A stretch of 64,000 bases of DNA from NCBI GenBank assembly GCA_963745035.1, contig CAVUVW010000013.1:1088001-1152000 (forward strand). Direction: 5' to 3'. Positions 9,473 to 38,757 of the stretch are shown piece after piece (the stretch's first letter is position 1; the number at the start of each line of letters is the position of its first letter). The translations under genes were made by a program, and so were the position numbers. The stretch comes from an uncultured delta proteobacterium. GTDB lineage: Bacteria > Desulfobacterota > Binatia > UBA9968. The notes under the pieces were generated by a model that saw nothing but the letters and a program-made list of their open reading frames with translations, was not told where the DNA came from and did no database searches.

Positions 9473-9568
9473 CGTTCAAAACGTTCCAATAGTTCAAGTC
9501 GTTCAAATCGTCTAGAGCTTCGAACTCTGACGGCTTGAACGTTTTGAACGACTTGAACGGCTTAAACG
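9473..9568. repeat. Hairpin built from tandem ~9-bp CGTTCAA units
   Basis: CGTTCAAAA CGTTCCAAT AGTTCAAGT CGTTCAAAT ... TTGAACGTT TTGAACGAC TTGAACGGC TTAAACG. Confidence 0.85.
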
Positions 9569-29499: not shown

Positions 29500-30761
29500 A
29501 TGCTCACTAAACTCACCGGACTTTTTTACGGCTGGCGCATGGTGGCCGCCTCGGCGGCGGTGCGCCTGCTCGGCGCCGGTCTTCACAGCTACGGCTTTAC
29601 GGTTTTCTTTTTGCCGCTCAGCCAGGAGCTGAATCTTAGCCGGACCGCGACCTCCTTCGCGTTTTCCCTCGCGCGCGCCGAAGGCGCCATCGAAGGTCCC
29701 ATCGTCGGCCACATGCTTCATCGCTACGGCCCCCGTCCGGTGATGCTGGTCGCGGTGGCGCTCATGGGCGTCGGCTATCTCCTGCTTTCTCAAGCGACCA
29801 GCTACGTAACGTTCTTGATCGTCTACACGGGCCTTGATTTCTCTCGCCCACGCCGGCGGCTTCATGCATGCGCCGATGACCTTGACCAATACCTGGTTTA
29901 TTCGCTTGCGCGCCCGCGCCATGACGATCAACAGCGCGGCCTACGGTCTCGGCGGCGTGCTGCTCGCGCCGCTGCTCAGCGTGATCGTGCACTCCTGGGG
30001 CTGGCGCTGGGGCGCCGCGGCGGCGGGCATGGCGTTTCTGCTGATCGGCCTGCCGCTTGTGTCTGACGATTCGCAACTCGCCCGAGAGCATGGGCCTGCT
30101 GCCCGACGGAGAGACTCACCAGGCCGCTGCATCGAGCGGCAAACAAAGTCACCGCCCGGCGGTTGCCGAAGCCGAAGTCACCGCTAGTCAAGCCATACGC
30201 TCATTTGCTTTTTGGGCGCTCGTGTTCGGCGCGGGAGTCCGCAACGCGGCTTATCATGCGATCTCGACGCATTTCATTCCGCTCATGGTTTGGAAAGGCA
30301 TGAGCCAGCAGGAAGCCACTCTAATGCTGAGCGCGTTCGCCTTTCTCGGCTTTGCTTCCACGCTGATTTTCGGCTGGCTCGCCGACTCAATGAATAAGCC
30401 GCGCCTCGTTTCCTTCATTCTCTTCACTGCGGGAGTTTCGATTTGCTTTCTCATATTCGGCGATTCCATCCTGCCTTTGGGGATTTTTATTCTGCTCTTC
30501 ACCACGGTGGAAGCCACGTACCCCGTGGCTTGGGCGATGGTCGGCGATATTTTCGGCCGAAAACACTTCCCCAAAATTCGCGGTTACATGAGCGTATTTT
30601 ATGTTTGGGGAAGCGTTACCGGCCCGGTCATTGCCGGCGCGGTCTGGGACCGCTGGGAAAGTTACGAGCCGATGCTGTGGGGATTGGTGTTGATGTTTTT
30701 TCTTTCAGGAGCCTTCTACACCGTGCTCGGTAAACCTTGGGCGCGGCCGAAAAATACTTAA
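29500..30761 (+). CDS. MFS transporter (two frameshifts)
   Basis: FYGWRMVAA, FTVFFLPL, RYGPR, RNSPESMGLLPDG, GWLAD and DIFGRKHF spread over three frames. Confidence 0.85.
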
Positions 30762-30765
30762 CGCC

Positions 30766-30840
30766 CGTTCAAAGTTCAATGTGCAAAGTCTGGCGATCGG
30801 GCATGAAGAGATCCCGCCTAGATTTGGAACGTTAAACATT
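30766..30840. repeat. GTTCAA-unit hairpin repeat (7-bp period) at the left edge of the island
   Basis: GTTCAAA GTTCAAT GTGCAAA ... TTGGAAC GTTAAAC. Confidence 0.5.
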
Positions 30841-30848
30841 CGTTTTGA

Positions 30849-30874
30849 TTTGAAGCGTCGTTCAGTTCAATCTC
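30849..30874 (+). repeat. 70-bp palindrome family, copy 0 (right half only)
   Basis: TTTGAAGCGTCGTTCAGTTCAATCTC. Confidence 0.85.
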
Positions 30875-31265
30875 GGCAATGATCTGGTTTTTATTGTTCG
30901 CCATACTAACATTATGCTGATCGGCCTTTGACGAAGGGTATGTTTTCACCAGCCTTCGATTTTCATGCTACTAACCCTTTGAGTTCTTCTCCGTTAGGTA
31001 CTTCTTCATAACAAGGCGCTTCTTTTGTCTCTTGCGCCTGTAGGTATTTTTTCGTGCGTCCTGCTTCAGGCTTCTTCTCCTTGTAAGCCGGCATAAACCG
31101 GCGGGTTGTTTGCGGGTGGGAGTCGCACGGCTAAGGGCTTGCGACCCATGCCGGCCTTGAGTCACGCGTGGCTGTCCGCAAGTTCAGCCACGCAGCGTTG
31201 ATAAAGGAACGTGCAGCCGCTTCGTCATCTATTCGTCCAAATGCCGCGACACCAAGACGCAATTG

Positions 31266-31739
31266 TCACTGTACCAACGGTACCGTAGCGGCAAGATCGT
31301 ACTTAATGACGGCTCGGATCTTGTTTTCAATTTGTAGATATCGCGCTACCTTCGTCGCTGGCAACGCCTTGTTTAGCTTCGGAACAGAGGAGCTTTTGAG
31401 CTTGACCTCAGCTTGCTCAATCGATAGGTACTCATCGGTCAGCTTCTTCGCTTTTTCGTCGGTCATCGATTTGTTCTTGTAGTCCGCCGCATAGCTATGC
31501 AGCGCCTGGATGAGGCGCTCGTTGATCTTCTGCAGATCCTTCTGATAGTCCTCGTAAATCGGCCAGAAATTCTTTGCCTCTGACTCTGTCAACTCCATGT
31601 TCGTCGCGACCAGAAGCTTCTTGTCTGCTTTAATCTTCTCGCGCAGAATCTGCATGTTGTCCGCCGGTTTGTCCTGCGTCAGCGCGGGCAATGGCACTAA
31701 GCCCAACAGCAATGCTATAGCTAAAATAGTCTGCCTCAC
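31266..31739 (-). CDS. Secreted alpha-helical protein (Spy/CpxP-like hypothetical)
   Basis: GGGAGG RBS and GTG start; signal peptide; MELTESEAKNFWPIYEDYQKDL and KVARYLQIENKIRA. Confidence 0.75.
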   Translation of the reverse strand: MRQTILAIALLLGLVPLPALTQDKPADNMQILREKIKADKKLLVATNMELTESEAKNFWPIYEDYQKDLQKINERLIQALHSYAADYKNKSMTDEKAKKLTDEYLSIEQAEVKLKSSSVPKLNKALPATKVARYLQIENKIRAVIKYDLAATVPLVQ

Positions 31740-31894
31740 TGATTCGTCCTCCCTTATGCTGTAATTTCGGTATTGAGTTTTTATACTGGAGATTGAGTTG
31801 GATTTCCATATTTCACGTTCGATCGGGTAGAGATTCCTGACCAATTTGGTGTGGAAGCAAAATGTAAACACTTTGAGCCGGAACAGGCTACGGC

Positions 31895-31938
31895 GGAGCC
31901 ACCCGGCGGATTCGAACCGCCGACCTGCTGATTACGAA
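31895..31938 (-). tRNA. tRNA-Thr(CGT) 3' half only (att-site-like fragment, not a complete tRNA)
   Basis: Reverse complement TTCGTAA TCAGCAGGTC GGCGG TTCGAAT CCGCC GGGTGGC TCC = anticodon loop, T-arm and 3' acceptor strand; no D-arm upstream. Confidence 0.85.
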
Positions 31939-32147
31939 AAACAATAAAGAACTTGGCAACATAACTCAACCAGCGAAAAACCAGCAAAACTAGCGAGAAT
32001 CAAGTTATTGGCAAGATGTTACTCTGATCAAACCGTGTTGGCGCGGAAACAATATGGAAACAGGAGCAACGAATAGATTACAACCTGGGGCTCAGCACGA
32101 GCAGGGTTCAGCAGGTCCAGAACCAGAGTTGTGCAGCAGCGAGTCAG

Positions 32148-32285
32148 AAGGGTGCTAAGCCGGCTGATCTGCCTGTGGAGCAGAGGAAGACGTTTGAATT
32201 TGTCGTTAATCTCAAAACCGCCAAAGGGATCGGGCTCGACATTCCGCAGTCGGTGCTGTTCCGAGCCGACAGGGTGATCAAATGA
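32148..32285 (+). pseudogene. Isolated 3' tail of a COG2984-type ABC SBP gene
   Basis: [45 protein letters not shown]. Confidence 0.9.
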
Positions 32286-32289
32286 AGCC

Positions 32290-32361
32290 AGGACTGAATT
32301 GAATTCTCCATCAACGCAATCTCGCGTGGCATCACATTGAAGCGTCGTTCAGTTCAATCCT
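32290..32361 (+). repeat. 70-bp palindrome family, copy 1
   Basis: AGGACTGAATTGAATTCTCCATCAA-var-ATCACATTGAAGCGTCGTTCAGTTCAATCCT. Confidence 0.92.
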
Positions 32362-32467
32362 AGGTTGAAATTAGCCTTTTTCCCCTCGACGAATCCGGTT
32401 TTTGTTCTGCCGTAAACAACCCTTTTTTAAGTCTCCGTGTTCGTGATAAATAAACTCACGAGGTGGG

Positions 32468-32549
32468 CTGGTCAATCTGAAGACGGCCAAGCAGCTCGCC
32501 TAACTATTCCGCCCAATGTCCTGGCCAGAGCGGATGGGTGATGAAGTGA
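32468..32549 (+). pseudogene. Isolated degenerate SBP 3' tail
   Basis: VNLKTAKQL.LTIPPNVLARAD.VMK* with two single-base deletions. Confidence 0.8.
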
Positions 32550-32560
32550 ACATAGCCGAC

Positions 32561-33533
32561 ATGTCGCAACATACAAAGACTACTCATGTGTCCTGCGATA
32601 TACGCTCTGCTTATTGAAACTGGCTTTCTCGCTAATGCCAGCAGCCGAAAGCGGTATTTAAGATCGGAATGCTCTGGAGGCGTCCGGACTCGGGTTATTC
32701 CGTGGAGAGCTGCGTGAGCTTGGCTACGTTGAAGGGAAGAACATAATTTCCGAGTACCGACAGAGTGATGGAAAGCTCGACCGCGTTCCTGCCCTTGTTG
32801 ATGAGCTGATTCGCCAGAAAGTTGACGTGCTCGTCGCTTCCTCGACACCCGGCGCCATGCTGCCAAGAACGCTACTTCTACGATCCCGATTGTTTTTTTA
32901 ACTGTGCCCGATCCTGTCGGAGCTGGGCTGGTCGATAGTCTCGCACAACCAGGCGGAAACATTACGGGAGTCGCAAACATTACCCCCGATATGGCCGGCA
33001 AACGACTGGAGTTGCTAAAAGAAACTATTCCGAAGATTTCCCGTGTTGCAGTGCTTTGGGACCCACAAATCCCAGGCTCCGCCGAATCCTGGAAAGAAAG
33101 CCGCGTGCCGGCGCAGGAACTGGGTCTACTCCTTCATTCCATGGAAATAAGCAGCGCGGACAATCTCGATGCGAAGTTCGAAGAAACGGTTCAGGCGCGT
33201 AGCTCGGCGCTCATGCTAGCGGGTGGCACATTGGCTACCGCCAATCAAAAAACAATCGCGGATCTCGCCATAAAAAATCGTTTGCCAACGATTTCTACGC
33301 GCACAGATTTCGTGGAAGCGGCGTCTTAATGTCGTATGGCTCTGACTTAAAAGAACCTTACAAGCGCGTGGCATCCATCGTTGATAAGATCCTCAAGGGG
33401 ACGAAGCCCGTCGACATCCCCGTCGAACAACCAACAAAGTTTAAGATGTATATTAACCTCAAAACAGCAAAAGCAGATCGGCCTGACGATTCCGCCGAAT
33501 GTGCTGGCGCGGGCGGATAAGGTGATCAAGTAA
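32561..33533 (+). pseudogene. COG2984-type ABC SBP gene with multiple frameshifts
   Basis: LRELGYVEG, TSTIPIVFLTVPDPVGAGLVDSLAQPGGNITG, KRLELLKE, VDKILKGTKP.DIPVEQPTKF and VLARADKVIK*. Confidence 0.85.
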
Positions 33534-33548
33534 CCACCCGGCGACGCT

Positions 33549-33618
33549 AGGATTGAACTGAATTCTCCTACAACCAAATCCTGTGGAATTTGTCCGTTGC
33601 GTCGTTGAGTTCAACCCT
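33549..33618 (+). repeat. 70-bp palindrome family, copy 2
   Basis: AGGATTGAACTGAATTCTCCTACAA-var-GCGTCGTTGAGTTCAACCCT. Confidence 0.9.
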
Positions 33619-33838
33619 ACCGGCTTTTTTGTGATTGTCTAGCCGAACTAAGCCGCCGATTGTTAGGGAGTATGCGGCCCCGCCGGTCAGCTTTTGGCGG
33701 AAGCCGTTGAGCTGGGTGGCTGATGGATATTGCAACCGATTTGGATTTTATTGTCGGAGCCACCGCTGGAGATAAGCGGACCGGCATTTGTCTCCGCTTA
33801 CGGTGGCTCAATTAAAGATACAAGTTAGGACACAAAAT

Positions 33839-34264
33839 ATGCGAAATCTGATTACCCTCTCTCTTATCGTCTTGGTTACGGCTTGTGGGACTATGAGTGC
33901 AGACCGCAGTGGGACTGCGAAACAACAGGTGGCTGAAGCAACTGCCGCCTGGGTTGCGGCGTATAATAGCCGTGATCCGGGACGTATCACCTCGTTGTAT
34001 GACCCCGAAGCTGTGTTCTGGGGAACGTCAGCAAAAACAATTTCTGCAAGCCCAGTTGCGATTGCCGATTATTTTAAGGATGCCGGCAAGACCCCCGACG
34101 CGAGAGTTACTCTCGGCGAACAGCATATTCGCGTCTATGGCGATGTGGCCATAAACACGGGCTACTACACATTCAGGAGTCCTGCTCGTTTCACCGTTGT
34201 CTACCGAAATCGGAACGGAAAATGGTTGATCGTTGATCACCACTCATCACGAGTTCCGGGGTAG
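33839..34264 (+). CDS. NTF2/SnoaL-like (SgcJ/EcaC/DUF4440-type) lipoprotein in an integron-cassette-like setting
   Basis: Lipobox VTAC; WVAAYNSRD, INTGYYTF and ARFTVVYRNRNGKWLIVDHHSS; GTTAGGA at 33824-33830. Confidence 0.85.
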   Translation: MRNLITLSLIVLVTACGTMSADRSGTAKQQVAEATAAWVAAYNSRDPGRITSLYDPEAVFWGTSAKTISASPVAIADYFKDAGKTPDARVTLGEQHIRVYGDVAINTGYYTFRSPARFTVVYRNRNGKWLIVDHHSSRVPG

Positions 34265-34281
34265 TTAGTTGTTATTCTCGA

Positions 34282-34370
34282 GTCCAATTCTTCAGGTGGA
34301 GTGTACGGGCCGCAAGCGTTCTGCAACAGTCGGTGTCTGTGCTGGCCCGCCGCTCACCAAGACGTTAGTG
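34282..34370 (+). other. Degenerate integron attC-like site
   Basis: GGTGGAGTG/CGCTCACC and CGGGCC/GGCCCG pairings; ends CGTTAGTG; lies just downstream of the NTF2 gene. Confidence 0.55.
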
Positions 34371-34372
34371 CC

Positions 34373-34444
34373 AGGATTGAACTGAATTCTCCATCAAACC
34401 AATCTCCGTGATCATCAAATTGAAGCGTCGTTCAGTTCAATCTC
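34373..34444 (+). repeat. 70-bp palindrome family, copy 3
   Basis: AGGATTGAACTGAATTCTCCATCAA-var-ATCAAATTGAAGCGTCGTTCAGTTCAATCTC. Confidence 0.92.
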
Positions 34445-34543
34445 AGGCTAAATTTGGTCTTTTTCACTGGCCGATTCACTGTTGCCTTCGGTCGCAAATC
34501 TTAGTTTCCCTCTGATACAGCCCGCGTGATAAACATGTGGGCA

Positions 34544-35536
34544 ATGAGGAAAGCTGGTGTCTTATCTGTCTTGGTAATGCTTGCTGTTGCAGTCGTAGCC
34601 GAGGCGCAGCAGCCAACAAAAATCCCGCGGATCGGATACGTCTCAGGCACGGGCACTGCGACTAATCAAGGTCCGTACGTCGAAGCTCTGCGCCAAGGGC
34701 TGCGCGAAGTAGGTCACGTCGAGGGGAAAACCTTCGTGATCGAGTATCGCGCCGCGGAGGGACAGATAGAGCGCGTACCAAGCCTCGTCGAGGAACTAGT
34801 ACAACAAAAGGTCGATCTAATGATTGCTCCGGTTCCAAACGCCATCCGAGCCGCTAAACAGGCAACCAAGACGATTCCTATTGTTATGGTGGCCAGCATT
34901 GATCCGGTCGCAACCGGAATGATCGATAGCTTGGCACGTCCTGGTGGAAATTTGACTGGCATCTCCACCCTAAACCAAGACCTAAACGGCAAACGGCTAG
35001 AATTGCTCAAGGAGGTGGTCCCGCAGCTATCACGCGTGGGAATTCTTCTGGATAGGGGAAGTTCGAGCACGAGTTCTACGGTAGTGAATTTGAAGCAGTA
35101 TGAGGACGCGGCCAGGGTTCTCAAGATAGAAATCCAATCGCTTGAAGTCCACGGACCGAAGCCCGACCTGGAACCTATGTTTAATACAGCCGCCAAGTTG
35201 CGCATTGGGGGGCTGGTCACAATCACTAATGCCAACCTCTTTATCCAACAAAAGCGGCTCGCCGAACTCGCGATAAAACATAGGCTGCCTTCAATGTTCC
35301 AGGGAAGCACCTGGGTCGATTCAGGCGGCCTTATGTCCTATGCAACCGACGAACTTGGCGCGTTTCGCCGAGCCGCGACTTATGTGGATAAAATACTCAA
35401 GGGCACAAAGCCTGCTGATTTGCCGGTCGAGCAGACAACAAAGTTTGAATTCGTAGTCAACCTCAAAACCGCTAAACAAATCGGTCTCAACATTCCGGAG
35501 TCGGTGCTATTCCGAGCTGACAGAGTAGTCAAATGA
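34544..35536 (+). CDS. COG2984-type ABC transporter substrate-binding protein (intact, no adjacent permease)
   Basis: Signal peptide then AEAQQPTKIPRIG; TIPIVM..DPV..G...[35 protein letters not shown] and RADRVVK*. Confidence 0.93.
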   Translation: MRKAGVLSVLVMLAVAVVAEAQQPTKIPRIGYVSGTGTATNQGPYVEALRQGLREVGHVEGKTFVIEYRAAEGQIERVPSLVEELVQQKVDLMIAPVPNAIRAAKQATKTIPIVMVASIDPVATGMIDSLARPGGNLTGISTLNQDLNGKRLELLKEVVPQLSRVGILLDRGSSSTSSTVVNLKQYEDAARVLKIEIQSLEVHGPKPDLEPMFNTAAKLRIGGLVTITNANLFIQQKRLAELAIKHRLPSMFQGSTWVDSGGLMSYATDELGAFRRAATYVDKILKGTKPADLPVEQTTKFEFVVNLKTAKQIGLNIPESVLFRADRVVK

Positions 35537-35589
35537 TACTGTTCCGTTGCCGTTGCCAGTGGTCAGCGGTTACCAAGAGCGTCTTCGCC

Positions 35590-35674
35590 ATTCGTTAATC
35601 TTAAAACCGCCAAGCAAATCGGCCTGAAAATTCCGGCTAATGTGCTGGCGAGGGCGAATAAGGTGATCAAATAA
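35590..35674 (+). pseudogene. Isolated SBP 3' tail
   Basis: VNLKTAKQIGLKIPANVLARANKVIK*. Confidence 0.88.
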
Positions 35675-35688
35675 CGAGGCGGCGTCCC

Positions 35689-35725
35689 AGGATTGAACTG
35701 TATTCTCCATCAATTCAATTTCAGG
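35689..35725 (+). repeat. 70-bp palindrome family, copy 4 (internally deleted)
   Basis: AGGATTGAACTGTATTCTCCATCAATTCAATTTCAGG. Confidence 0.8.
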
Positions 35726-35771
35726 TCGATGACCCTGGAGTGCTACGGTCCGTGCTGCCCGGCCCTTTTCC

Positions 35772-35799
35772 TGCGCGGGCGGACAGAGTGATAAAATAA
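35772..35799 (+). repeat. Minimal SBP 3' tail immediately upstream of the TenA-like gene
   Basis: GCGCGGGCGGACAGAGTGATAAAATAA = ARADRVIK*; the stop overlaps the TAAGGAG RBS. Confidence 0.8.
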
Positions 35800-35809
35800 G
35801 GAGCGCATT

Positions 35810-36472
35810 ATGATCGGTGCCAAGGCTCTGTTAGAAGGGATTCGGCAAGATTTGCAGCCCGTCACGGAACAGCTTCTGGGGCATCCTTACGTGAAGGCTC
35901 TGGAGGAAGGGCAGATTGAGCGGGAGAAGCTCCGTCTTTTTGCCGGCGAGCAGTACAGCATCATAGCGAGTGATCTCAAAAGCGTCGCTTATTTGCTTAG
36001 CCGCTTCGGTAGCGCTCCGAGCCGTGATTTCTTTCTCGGAATCCTGCAGGGTGAAAGAGCTGCCTGGGATGGCTTGCTAACGTTCGTCAATGCCCTCGGC
36101 CTAAGCGAAGCTCAACTGAGCAAGCACGAGCCAGCGGCTGGCGCTCATGCCTACACCTGCTACATGGCGTGGCTTGCGCTCTATGCCTCTGACGCCGAGA
36201 TTGCTGCTGCCTACCTGGTCAATTTTCCAGCGTGGGGTCAGAACTGTGGCCGCCTGAGCCGGATTCTGAAAGAGCGTTTCGGTATGGGCGAGAAGGAAGT
36301 CGCTTTTTTTGATCTCTTCGCCTCTCCTCCAACTACATTTGAAGCCGACGCTCTGAAAGTTATTCAGCAGGGACTCGATCGAGGCATCGAGCCGAGCCTG
36401 ATCCAACGGGCGGCTCGGTTACTCCAGGCCTACGAGCTCATGTATTGGGATACCCTCTACGGGGCGTCTTAG
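35810..36472 (+). CDS. TenA/THI-4/PqqC family (heme-oxygenase-like fold) protein
   Basis: HPYVKALEEG..LRLFAGEQY, HAYTCYMAWLA and YELMYWDTL; AAGGAG RBS. Confidence 0.85.
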   Translation: MIGAKALLEGIRQDLQPVTEQLLGHPYVKALEEGQIEREKLRLFAGEQYSIIASDLKSVAYLLSRFGSAPSRDFFLGILQGERAAWDGLLTFVNALGLSEAQLSKHEPAAGAHAYTCYMAWLALYASDAEIAAAYLVNFPAWGQNCGRLSRILKERFGMGEKEVAFFDLFASPPTTFEADALKVIQQGLDRGIEPSLIQRAARLLQAYELMYWDTLYGAS

Positions 36473-36473
36473 C

Positions 36474-36506
36474 CGTGCTGGCAGGGCGGATAAAGTGATC
36501 GAGTGA
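36474..36506 (+). repeat. Minimal SBP 3' tail immediately downstream of the TenA-like gene
   Basis: GTGCTGGC-AGGGCGGATAAAGTGATCGAGTGA = VL..RADKVIE*. Confidence 0.8.
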
Positions 36507-36531
36507 GCGAAGAAAACCAAGCGGCAATGCT

Positions 36532-36598
36532 AGGATTGAACTGAATTGTCCATCAATCTTAAACCACATCAAATTGAAGCGTCGTTCAGTTCAATGCT
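36532..36598 (+). repeat. 70-bp palindrome family, copy 5
   Basis: AGGATTGAACTGAATTGTCCATCAA-var-ATCAAATTGAAGCGTCGTTCAGTTCAATGCT. Confidence 0.92.
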
Positions 36599-36902
36599 GG
36601 AATATAAATTCAGATCAACCCGGACATTTTGCAGACAGCTTAGGAAAAACTAGCGCCACGAAGCTAGAATAGACGGCCTGCTTAAAAGGCAATCAGAGAG
36701 TACTAACAAGTACCACATCATACTAAAACTCCTCGCATGCTTTCCCGCACGGAAATACTACATCGTACAGAGCCGTTTTGGCGGCAGTTCACGCACAAAA
36801 GGCGCACAAAACACGGCAGCGGTTTGGCCAAAATCATGTCCTTGACAGACTTTAGCGATCTAGGCGATATTTTGCGCGGTTAAACCCGCAAGGTCATCCT
36901 CG

Positions 36903-37355
36903 ATGGATCAATCAGTCGTCAGCGCGTTATCAGCGATCTTGGGTTCACTGGTTGGCGGTTCGGCCACCATTGCAACTGCTTGGATTACACAGAAGACGCA
37001 AAGCAGACGCGAGTTAGTCGGCGCCGAGATTCGAAAGCGAGAACTACTCTATACTGAGTTTATTGACGAGTGCTCGAAGCTGGCCATTGACGCTTTGGAC
37101 CACACGCTCGATGACACCACGAAGGTTTTTCGCGTTTACGCACTTTCAAGTCGCATCAGGCTCACATCGTCCGACATGGTGGTTGCGGCCGCAGATCAGA
37201 CCGTAAAGCATATTCTCACGAGCTATTTCAGGCCTAACATGACGAGGGAAGAGATTCGAGATCTGGCCCTTTCCGGAACTGCTGAAAAAGATCCGCTTAC
37301 GCAATTCAGCGAAGCCTGTCGAAACGAGCTTAAAGCATTGCAATCTGGCTTCTGA
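36903..37355 (+). CDS. Hypothetical protein with an N-terminal TM helix
   Basis: 150-aa ORF; VVSALSAILGSLVGGSATIATAWI followed by a helical region; TTGACA at 36842 upstream. Confidence 0.75.
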   Translation: MDQSVVSALSAILGSLVGGSATIATAWITQKTQSRRELVGAEIRKRELLYTEFIDECSKLAIDALDHTLDDTTKVFRVYALSSRIRLTSSDMVVAAADQTVKHILTSYFRPNMTREEIRDLALSGTAEKDPLTQFSEACRNELKALQSGF

Positions 37356-37638
37356 CGAAGCAGCTCGTCCGTCCACAAGGAAGCCTGTTACGGCAATTCG
37401 TATAATTCAAATCCTTATCAGAATCCCCGCCGCCGATAAATAATTTGCCTGAAACGAGGCGATCAATCACCCGTAGGCAGTGCCACTAAAAACATGGTGC
37501 GGAGGCCGCAAATGAAAACTACTTTGAAATTATTCATTTTGGTCGCCAGCATTTTTGTGATGACGACTATGCCTAACCAGTGCGGGAACCGGACCGCCCA
37601 AGTCGCAGCTGAGAGTTTCTTGGCGGAGTGAGGGTGGT

Positions 37639-37708
37639 GGCTAACCCTTCCATCGAGCAGACGGGCTGCCGGTGCGCGTCTCCAGCCGCCGCTCATCAAA
37701 CGTTAGTG
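37639..37708 (+). other. Integron attC-like site
   Basis: GGCTAAC...GTTAGTG ends; internal ATCGAGC/GCTCAT (one extra base) and GGCTG/CAGCC pairings; 70 bp. Confidence 0.7.
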
Positions 37709-37710
37709 TT

Positions 37711-37735
37711 AGAATTGAACTGAATTCTCCTACAA
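37711..37735 (+). repeat. 70-bp palindrome family, copy 6 (left half only)
   Basis: AGAATTGAACTGAATTCTCCTACAA. Confidence 0.85.
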
Positions 37736-37767
37736 AATTAATCCAGAGAATCTGCCTGAGGCATCGT

Positions 37768-38091
37768 TTATTTCAAACGTACGGCGAGCCAAACCGTATT
37801 CGCGCTGGTGCGCGCCACTCGATGGCGCACGCTGCGCGGGATCATTACATAATCGCCTTCGCTCATTTCAACGATTTGACCGTCGGTGAATTCTAGCGCC
37901 GCCGTGCCGCGCAGCACGATCACCCATTCGTCTTCGGCTTGATCGTACCAGAACCCGGCCGGACTGCTGTGCGAGTGCGAGACGATTCGCTCGATCCTGA
38001 CGGCGCCGCTTTCGAACAAGACGAAAAAGTCTTCCGAGCTTGCCGCGTTTCCGGCGGCGTCGAAGATATTTCCCGCATTGGGGCGCGCCAT
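37768..38091 (-). CDS. Cupin domain protein
   Basis: VRIERIVSH..SPAGFWYDQAEDEWVIVLRG..GDYVMIP..RHRV. Confidence 0.88.
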   Translation of the reverse strand: MARPNAGNIFDAAGNAASSEDFFVLFESGAVRIERIVSHSHSSPAGFWYDQAEDEWVIVLRGTAALEFTDGQIVEMSEGDYVMIPRSVRHRVARTSANTVWLAVRLK

Positions 38092-38093
38092 CG

Positions 38094-38757
38094 TTACATC
38101 CGCGCCCGGCGAATCGCCGGCACGTCGACGATGCGGCGCTGGCCCGGCGCCGGCGGGTTTTCCACCGCGCTGACGAGCGCGGTGATCATCTGCTCGATAC
38201 TGATCAGGCCAAGCCGCTCCGCCGTTGCCCGCGTGGCGGGTATCATTTCGGCGAGTCTGTAAAGCGGCTTGATCAGCACCGGCCAGCGACGGCCCGGACC
38301 GAGCACGTACCACGGCCGCAGGATCGTCGCCGCCAAACCGGATTCGCGAATGATCGTTTCTCCGAGAGTGCGCACCCACAAGTAGGCCTGCATGATCGGC
38401 GCCGGCTGGGCGACGCTGACGTAGATCAGATGAGCGGCGCCGATTTTTTTCGCTGCCGCCACGGTGGCGCGAATCGAAACCAGATCGATCTTCTCGAATT
38501 GATCGGCCTTGCTCGGAGTGGGATGGGGCGTGCCGACCAGATGAATCACCGTGTCGTCGGACCGCAACTCCGCCTCGATCGATGTGGCTTCGAGGGCGTC
38601 GCCGATGACCGACGTCGCGCCCGCGGGAACACGGCCCACCGACGCCGCGCGCGCGAGCGCGCGCACCCGATGCCCGCGCGCAAGCAGCACGGGAATCAAT
38701 TGAGCGCCGATGTAGCCGGTGCCGCCGGTGACAAAAATATTGAGTGGTGAGTGCCAT
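38094..38757 (-). CDS. NAD(P)H-binding atypical SDR/epimerase (indel near the start)
   Basis: IFVTGGTGYIG (upstream of the listed ORF, same frame), VIHLVGTPHP and ILRPWYVLGPG. Confidence 0.88.

Follow-up and report, generated by a model that had tools for sequence, protein, structure and literature searches.

The window analysed here, 64 kb of DNA from an uncultured delta proteobacterium of the Binatia (C13:1088001-1152000 of genome G000, a 7.43-Mb draft of 28 contigs), contains at 30.8-37.8 kb an island that is divided into gene modules by a co-oriented palindromic repeat, referred to below as P. The repeat has a conserved, asymmetric anatomy, the island is an insertion lacking from relatives, its modules are shared as units between arrays and genomes, and P arrays extend to other Binatia of the same genus. 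With about even confidence, P is read here as an attP-like junction, its crossover core lying in the right half, at which small modules that can circularise and mostly carry one gene would be joined, Binatia of this genus sharing a pool of them. Arrays of cassettes between recombination sites are in themselves a known kind of system, integrons and Xer-dependent modules being a main route by which bacteria sample accessory genes. Coordinates are those of the window unless a contig (C), genome (G) or locus (L) is named.

Copies and anatomy of repeat P

Searches of the window with the left-arm 19-mer of P returned six matches at no more than three mismatches (32291, 33550, 34374, 35690, 36533 and 37712), and those with the right-half 23-mer four (30850, 32337, 34420 and 36574), all on the + strand and each against a chance expectation of 0.01. 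Both searches bear out the seven co-oriented copies, at 30849, 32290, 33549, 34373, 35689, 36532 and 37711, proposed in an earlier annotation made from the sequence letters alone (the first-pass annotation), as well as its statement that the rest of the window is free of them: outside these seven sites neither the arm searches nor a covariance model of P (R1) found a further copy in the 64 kb. The copies are spaced 824-1487 bp apart, all on the + strand.

Full copies are P2 (32290-32361, 93.1 bits with R1), 4 nt past the stop of a binding-protein 3' fragment; P3 (33549-33618, 71.6 bits), behind a broken PF04392 gene; P4 (34373-34444, 93.4 bits), 2 nt behind an attC-like 3' end; and P6 (36532-36598, 78.1 bits), which has a shorter centre. 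P5 (35689-35737), previously described as internally deleted, is by its sequence a left half and centre fused to the 3' end fragment of a binding-protein gene, the same junction being found at C11:147186. The outermost copies are half copies, as had been claimed, and not simple truncations: both are junction hybrids with native chromosomal DNA. P1 (30849-30874), a right half only, is fused leftward to a native spacer resembling repetitive extragenic palindromic (REP) sequences, forming an attL-like junction in the sequence and in the alignment of relatives, and P7 (37711-37759, 46.4 bits), a left half with centre, forms an attR-like junction. The bases that follow P7 (37760-37779) resemble a P right half, yet align with the native DNA of relatives.

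An alignment of 17 full copies from G000 defines P as a unit of 72-78 bp, with an outer stem of 11-14 pairs and 14-bp terminal inverted repeats, whose interior is asymmetric yet conserved in sequence. The asymmetric conserved inner parts and the variable centre reported earlier are thus retained, with variation confined to a centre of only about 8-10 nt. When 73 distinct copies, drawn from several genomes, are compared, conservation reaches at least 0.9 at ATTGAA.TGAATTCTCC of the left half and at TG, GCGTCGTT and CAGTTCAAT of the right half, asymmetric inner parts included. In the consensus fold the outer 11 pairs form alone, compensatory changes are absent and z lies between -1 and -2; inside these pairs some 45 nt remain unpaired, with conserved sequence, and a second stem is confined to one subfamily, on the bottom strand. 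In P, sequence rather than fold is conserved.

A second small palindrome (Q, about 70 bp), without an attached gene, abuts five left-only copies of P, for example at C17:2840-2910, C13:1956351-1956425, C11:139337-139402 and 35733-35775 of the window. In metagenome contigs Q is also joined in front of a P right half, and it may represent either an insertion in the P centre or a longer version of that centre.

The island as an insertion

Between 30.8 and 37.8 kb the GC content is 50-52%, against about 61% on either side. The strain comparison suggested in the first-pass annotation found an empty site in all five relatives compared, these being the most contiguous assemblies among those with a flank match: the island is absent, and 80-115 bp separate the gene of a major facilitator superfamily (MFS) transporter (29500-30751 in the window) from a cupin gene (37767-38757). 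The right-flank genes were matched in 27 of the 41 genomes searched (G000 included), long matches being 68-77% identical. Where flanks were compared, namely at the window, C19, C13b and parts of C14b and C10, the DNA bearing P is not conserved in relatives.

In relatives the native spacer between the MFS and cupin genes is a palindrome of GTTCAA and TTGAAC heptads. On the left of the island, native DNA extends as far as TTTGAA and gives way to GCGTCGTTCAGTTCAATC, which belongs to P; on the right, CCTGA ends the P left half and centre, and GGCATCGTTTATTTCAAACG, which comes next, aligns with the native spacer of relatives, and the comparison of junctions with empty sites places the restart of native DNA on this side at GGCATCGTTTATTT. 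Both junctions carry a copy of a 10-13-nt core. Since the junctions align with the empty sites and the core is present in both products, the exchange is placed inside the shared core. The edges of the island match the pattern left by a P-bearing circle integrating into a look-alike site. The proposed landing site is the native spacer, which is composed of the GTTCAA/TTGAAC heptad also present in P and has a similar core.

Palindromes of this kind occur genome-wide between convergent genes, a unit consisting of two to four tandem GTTCAA heptads, a loop and TTGAAC heptads (for example C13:1097492-1097549, window 9492-9549). Tandem pairs of the GTTCAA heptad number 300 and 303 in the two orientations in G000, and strict palindromes 43 in the GTTCAA...TTGAAC arrangement against two in the reverse one, which is the arrangement of P.

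Contigs assembled from public reads (four runs from four studies) span both island junctions; they are short and rich in other copies of P. Joints in these contigs, such as that from 35708 to 36573 in three runs, correspond to other P copies and not to excisions, and the absence of an empty-site joint among the joints listed, in contigs so short, counts as evidence neither way.

Modules as the unit of sharing

The modules delimited by P move as units. C11:147168-148115 matches the TenA module (35646-36598) at 96.6% identity, and this module recurs in G045 (L043) with 90.6% identity over 1033 bp, against 71-76% for core genes; the TenA gene is also found in G018 (88%). The module at 36573-37509, which holds a 150-aa open reading frame (ORF), is 98% identical to C6:4013-4951, and 133.6-134.8 kb of C11 equals 82.3-83.5 kb of C26 at 96.9%, with both ends at P. 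When 17 array loci were compared all against all (blocks of at least 300 bp and at least 85% identity, ends at locus edges dropped), 28 of the 51 distinct ends of homology blocks lay within 40 nt of P, a zone that accounts for 5.5% of bases. Sharing of modules between arrays and genomes, with block ends at P, supports the cassette interpretation of the first-pass annotation. The right half of P travels with a downstream leader of 90-200 nt. Its left half stays attached to the final 30-140 nt of a PF04392 gene, also in places that have lost the remainder of that gene.

Arrays and polarity in the genome of origin

A profile built from four window copies and run with nhmmer on G000 gave 48 matches, which collapse to 45 loci on 12 contigs and include 11 multi-copy clusters; each cluster is in a single orientation, and the largest (C11, 128.5-149.4 kb) comprises 12 loci. 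Repeat models applied to the genome and its relatives, as had been recommended, thus find P clustered and co-oriented. Array polarity and half-copy counts were read by eye from printed sequences. The geometry previously proposed, a right half, cargo and a left half, holds in six of the 11 multi-copy clusters (C1, C2, C6, that of the window, C13b and C26a), in which the first copy has no left arm and the last no right half; some arrays deviate from it, and two further clusters (C10 and C14b) open with a copy lacking the left arm.

Left-only copies break at TG directly before AAGCGTCG in eight of 12 cases, and five of these eight run into palindrome Q, the first bases of which are again core-like. 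Right-only copies all retain at least TGAAGCGTCG or GATGCGTCG, and thus the core. Complementarity between a right arm and the next left arm, assessed by eye, involves few variable sites. The upstream contexts of the 34 G000 left arms are an attC-type 3' end (a GTTAG/GTTAA 7-mer) at a distance of 2-3 nt in 12 cases, the stop codon or an orphan 3' end of a PF04392 gene, directly adjoining, in 14, and other sequence in eight; the left arms of relatives have the same mix.

Large tandem PF04392 arrays without P, with a spacing of about 1.05 kb, are also present in G000 (C17:177-204 kb, C14:387-414 kb, C2:1-26 kb and C24:46.6-52.3 kb). Their spacers contain other repeats, namely runs of short G/C-A-rich units (C14, C17) or a GTTCAA heptad palindrome (C24).

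Distribution across Binatia

Model R1, applied to 31 genomes of the genus at E ≤ 0.001, gave matches in 23 genomes including G000, equivalent to 22 of 30 congeners, with one to 57 per genome (31 in G000, 57 in G018, eight in G044; the tallies include the unpublished G005, with one match). Co-oriented P arrays are also found in G018, G043, G017, G024 and G023, and P is at least 90% conserved across genomes with core genes only 71-76% identical. An exact 20-mer from the right half occurs in 35 stretches of a species-representative collection, the carriers of which are nearly all labelled Binatia or 'uncultured delta proteobacterium', with three short contigs binned elsewhere; plasmid and phage collections returned no match to P. 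The Rfam check proposed in the first-pass annotation found no family at the P copies (E ≤ 1 over 30000-38500), Rfam having no attC family. The system looks lineage-specific to Binatia of this genus.

Integron elements within and around the arrays

An intact integron integrase (IntI) is encoded in G000 at C6:42038-43168 (TIGR02249, 445 bits against a cut-off of 265), and the 20 kb fetched around it contained neither a repeat family nor P. In the island itself, inspection identified three attC-like sites, all on the + strand: a canonical-looking attC at 37639-37708, with a left box ending in AAC, a right box starting with GTT and an inner stem with an extra top-strand C, which has a P-free homologue at C12:77285-77205; a short site at 34321-34370, behind the NTF2-like gene; and a long non-coding element at 33690-33830 (start approximate), about 60 nt behind P3, homologues of which lie behind P right halves on C10, C14, C17, C26 and at C11:148206. 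The window itself has no IntI, and clusters of attC sites lacking integron integrases (CALINs) are recognised by at least two sites within 4 kb.

A comparison of G000:C10 with G015:C5, which are 96% identical on both sides, revealed a swap in which 1.6 kb with a right-only P in G000 takes the place of about 95 nt in G015. Its right breakpoint lies exactly at attC G|TTCGGC; integron-type exchange therefore occurs in P arrays. The island is not independent of integrons, a point missed in the first-pass annotation, given the attC-like sites inside it, the IntI in the genome and this attC-type swap.

IntI scored above the cut-off in nine of the 31 genomes, and P counts do not track it: G018 has 57 P matches and no IntI (80% complete), G044 eight matches and none (99% complete), and G005 and G006 have two to three IntI with one P match each. 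Since related genomes are non-independent, no statistical claim is made on these counts. Two IntI-proximal regions of G014 and G015 (37.2 kb) contained no P by nhmmer at E ≤ 10; a regular expression for canonical 50-112-nt attC-like sites found seven on the + strand beside the two intI genes of G014 and two per strand in the G015 region.

Further canonical attC-like sites occur in G000 at a distance from P, at C23:88611-88679 (+) and at C21:134092 and 135189 (-). The first resembles the short 60-70-nt attC type of mobile integrons, and could be bin contamination (5.8%).

Comparison with known site classes

Sites of the attC class have invariant AAC and GTT triplets in their left and right boxes. 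In the 73 distinct P copies GTT is conserved at 0.92-0.99 and the C of AAC at just 0.66. As described in the available portion of the source, attC sites form R and L box stems with an unpaired central spacer, extrahelical bases and a variable terminal structure (PMC4889954); P has no second stem or extrahelical-base pattern in its consensus fold and departs from this architecture. The same text groups two or more same-strand sites lying within 4 kb of each other as CALINs and treats CALINs without IntI as common (PMC4889954), and P, in the window and in other clusters, is spaced in this way. The likeness to CALINs and integrons extends to co-oriented imperfect palindromes placed 0.8-1.4 kb apart behind mostly single same-strand genes, to arrays scattered in a genome with one IntI, to the real attC-like sites inside them and to the G|TT cassette swap. 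The differences lie in the missing conserved AAC, second stem and extrahelical bases, in the absence of P near IntI in two regions, and in the inferred P crossover, which would leave halves of 25-45 nt instead of 6 nt. The proposal that the site matches no attC is accordingly upheld by its triplets, its fold and its absence near IntI.

Integron cassettes also enter non-att sites, termed attG, which are characterised, in the part of the preprint available, by a minimal G|WT, a double-stranded form and central cleavage, being 'closer to dif-like core sites' (bioRxiv 10.1101/2022.09.11.507474). A G|TT is found both in the P core (GCGTCG|TT) and in the native landing site; the attG sites of that text differ in not being conserved 75-bp elements and in bounding no modules.

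The dif and pdif sites, as far as the accessible text describes them, are 28 bp long, a 6-bp centre separating two 11-bp arms that contain inner inverted repeats and of which one is better conserved (PMC6449649). Written as ATCA.ATTGAA-GCGTCG-TTCAGTTCAAT, the P right half fits 11-6-11, with an inner repeat of just 4-5 bp and a centre that is invariant, not variable; in this arrangement conservation of the right arm is 0.86-0.99, that of the left arm lower. Modules bounded by pdif in Acinetobacter plasmids and integrative mobile elements exploiting Xer (IMEX) resemble the P system, in the excerpts available, in their one to few genes, short sites and host recombinase acting in trans (PMC6449649, PMC7399989, PMC12907356). 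P sites differ from pdif in being co-oriented, in their 75 bp and in their extra conserved left half; IMEX occupy the single dif, whereas P arrays are found at ten or more loci. Orientation alternates between successive pdif sites. No convincing host dif was found in G000, where an XerD-arm motif gave one weak match, so the Xer idea stays a lead. A dif candidate resembling the P core on C21, the one match outside P, was rejected: GC skew is monotonic along that contig, and skew switches are scattered across the draft.

Like REP sequences, and like the REPINs of REP-associated tyrosine transposases (RAYTs), P is a short extragenic palindrome found behind genes, and it shares a heptad with the REP-like family of the genus; it differs in being clustered in single orientation within accessory low-GC islands and not beside RAYT genes. 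Compared with miniature inverted-repeat transposable elements (MITEs), P has inverted repeats and no target-site duplication, and the TA/CA flanks are part of an extended palindrome. A scan called no promoter or terminator at P.

Recombinases

The window contains no match to PF00589 or TIGR02249, which for these two families agrees with the earlier remark that it lacks a recombinase; serine recombinases and transposases were not scanned for there. A truncated tyrosine recombinase in the C11 array was rejected as a candidate, being unique to G000 and found in none of 30 relatives at E 1e-30. Tyrosine recombinases of 278 aa in the arrays of G018 and G043 were likewise set aside, as they are part of IS91-family elements. 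A link of P to these insertion sequences (IS) was itself rejected: G000 and G044 have no Y2 transposase (no PF04986 match), and the IS copies of G018 are not bounded by P. The same applied to a link with RAYTs, since two of the three RAYT-like genes examined are flanked by unrelated inverted repeats and the third by none.

The IS91-family elements (Zn_Tnp_IS91 and Y2_Tnp, with the 278-aa tyrosine recombinase gene upstream) were located at L059:2567-5093 (G018:C5), L057:7064-9363 (G043:C54), L058 and L060. They are multi-copy in G018 and G043, often within P arrays.

Proposed mechanism and alternative explanations

We infer the following mechanism, including its circular forms, the precise point of crossover and the enzyme. 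A module would consist of a P right half, a leader, a gene, a 3' tail and a P left half, so that closure of the circle would rebuild a full P. Strand exchange, by a recombinase provided in trans, would take place in a short core (TGAA-GCGTCG-TT) on the inner side of the right half, between inverted TTGAA and TTCA pieces of the heptad. Where the target is another P, tandem arrays with a full P between modules would result; where it is a chromosomal look-alike, the array would begin with a right half and finish with a left half. In the window, the landing site would be the REP-like palindrome native to the spacer of the MFS and cupin genes. True integron cassettes would also visit the arrays, ending 2-3 nt before P left arms. 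The enzyme might be the integron integrase in a double-strand mode, given the G|TT of core and landing site, or a Xer-type host recombinase, for which the right half can be read as 11-6-11. A more specific version, which we put forward tentatively and hold to be rather doubtful, is a second, IntI-independent cassette system in Binatia, with a Xer-type cut in a dif-like core, one-gene circles in tandem, heptad REP landing pads and integron cassettes nested at G|TT upstream of each P.

Several observations speak against P as an attP-like junction. No recombinase is linked to P, and the right breakpoint of the swap between G000 and G015 lies at an attC G|TT and not in P. The enrichment of block ends at P is in part expected for any repeat. 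A single clean empty site was obtained, four other arrays giving none: those on C13b, C2 and C19 have no conserved flanks on both sides (five relatives), and the breakpoints of the C14b island are not at P. The arrays G000:C11 and G043:C54 open and close with full copies, and about half of the left-only copies have no core- or arm-like sequence past the break, so partner sites would be loosely defined.

An explanation through integrons, in which P is an unusual lineage-specific attC family, comparable to the homogeneous repeats of large chromosomal integrons, and the arrays are ordinary CALINs, made and shuffled by IntI through folded single strands that cross over at the right arm's outer G|TT, is in our judgement unlikely. 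The intact IntI of G000, canonical attC-like sites within the same arrays and the integron-type swap against G015 argue for it, as do the size of P (72-78 bp) with AAC...GTT in its arms and the cassettes behind P, which begin with TTCAAT, complementary to the left arm of the next P. One-strand spacing below 4 kb and the frequency of CALINs without IntI, in the portion of the source available (PMC4889954), are also in its favour. It is opposed by the C of the left-arm AAC, kept in 66% of 73 copies, by the 11 outer pairs with no second (L-box) stem or extrahelical pattern, by the lack of P in the 37.2 kb of two IntI-proximal regions, by P counts that do not track IntI (G018, G044, G005, G006), and by right-only copies, which retain at least 25 nt of P and not just 6. 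Comparably improbable, in our estimate, is a reading of P as the structural palindrome that a subfamily of binding-protein genes carries in its intergenic DNA, REP- or terminator-like and perhaps an mRNA 3' stabiliser, with arrays arising by duplication and homologous recombination between P copies, invaded later by other genes, integron cassettes and IS elements, and with no dedicated site-specific step. Fourteen of 34 left arms behind a PF04392 stop or orphan 3' end would fit such an origin; so would the abundance in the genus of tandem PF04392 arrays that have other repeats between their genes, the large REP-like family on the same GTTCAA heptad, and the capacity of any repeat to delimit homology blocks. 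Nevertheless, neither terminator nor promoter was called at P, the fold is weak and the asymmetric inner motifs are conserved like the arms. Reciprocal half-sites and an island edge within a 10-13-nt core are not expected from duplication, and such a core is too short for RecA-type homology. P-bearing DNA is also not conserved where the flanks of relatives were compared, while P itself is at least 90% conserved across genomes with 71-76% core identity.

A non-autonomous transposable palindrome, MITE or REPIN, targeting positions behind attC sites and binding-protein stops would account for the 14-bp terminal inverted repeats and the fixed position 2-3 nt behind attC-type 3' ends (12 of 34), in a genus that has IS91 elements and RAYT genes (NF047646, 84.8 bits; cut-off 80). 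We nonetheless regard it as very improbable, since target-site duplication is absent, orientation is strictly uniform within clusters, halves keep their specific flanks even without the other half, the RAYT genes carry unrelated REPs (two) or none (the third), G000 has no Y2 transposase, and no filled and empty pair differing by P alone was found. The MITE alternative offered in the first-pass annotation is disfavoured on the same grounds of clustering, co-orientation and halves that stay with their flanks.

Significance

To our knowledge, gene-cassette systems are described almost only from Proteobacteria and clinical settings. In the literature we found no description of the P site, of the half-site polarity, of the heptad kinship or of nesting with integron cassettes, no separate search having been made on the repeat itself, and no paper joining Binatia or Binatota with integrons. 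The array represents a well-delimited case in an uncultured soil lineage, with a clean empty site, a defined junction, dozens of arrays and a testable 75-bp substrate. If P is an independent site, it would constitute a new cassette platform and would link genome-wide REP-like palindromes to landing sites of mobile DNA; if it is an aberrant attC, the accepted attC structure would be widened and possible misses of current integron finders revealed. The orphan binding-protein 3' ends next to P, before unrelated cargo, bear on how cassettes are born.

Cargo genes and other features of the island

The flanks belong to the core genome, by Pfam and by comparison with relatives: on the left the 3' part of the MFS transporter gene (30057-30761, +), on the right the cupin-domain gene (37768-38757, -). 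Pfam supports four of the six cargo labels given earlier. These are a PF04392 binding protein with a broken gene (32696-33533, +; ORFs 32904-33329 and 33329-33520), a DUF4440/SnoaL (NTF2-like) protein (33788-34264, +), an intact PF04392 binding protein of 336 aa (34526-35536, +), and a TENA/THI-4 family gene (35810-36472, +) that stands between two binding-protein 3' remnants. The other two, a 201-aa ORF (31266-31871, -) labelled 'Spy-like' and a 150-aa ORF (36903-37355, +) labelled 'TM', are without a Pfam family at E 0.01. The intact PF04392 gene is followed at 35590-35674 by a further binding-protein 3' end, an orphan.

Remnants of the last codons of a binding-protein gene bracket the TENA-family gene at 35773-35799 and 36480-36506. 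From these traces, it looks as if the gene had replaced the body of a binding-protein gene within a pre-existing module, which could hint at how new cassettes arise.

In the first module, directly behind a short GC hairpin, a match to group II intron domains D1-D4 (Rfam RF02005) extends over 31119-31260 (+), with 62 bits against a gathering score of 49 and an E-value of 8e-16; its appearance is that of an intron remnant without an ORF, of the hairpin- or attC-targeting kind. An 84-nt stretch at 31895-31978 (-) may be what remains of an older att site: it is 83-91% identical to sequences at C13:516078, C13:540276 and C14:771513 and resembles by eye the 3' part of a tRNA gene, ARAGORN reporting no tRNA in the window.

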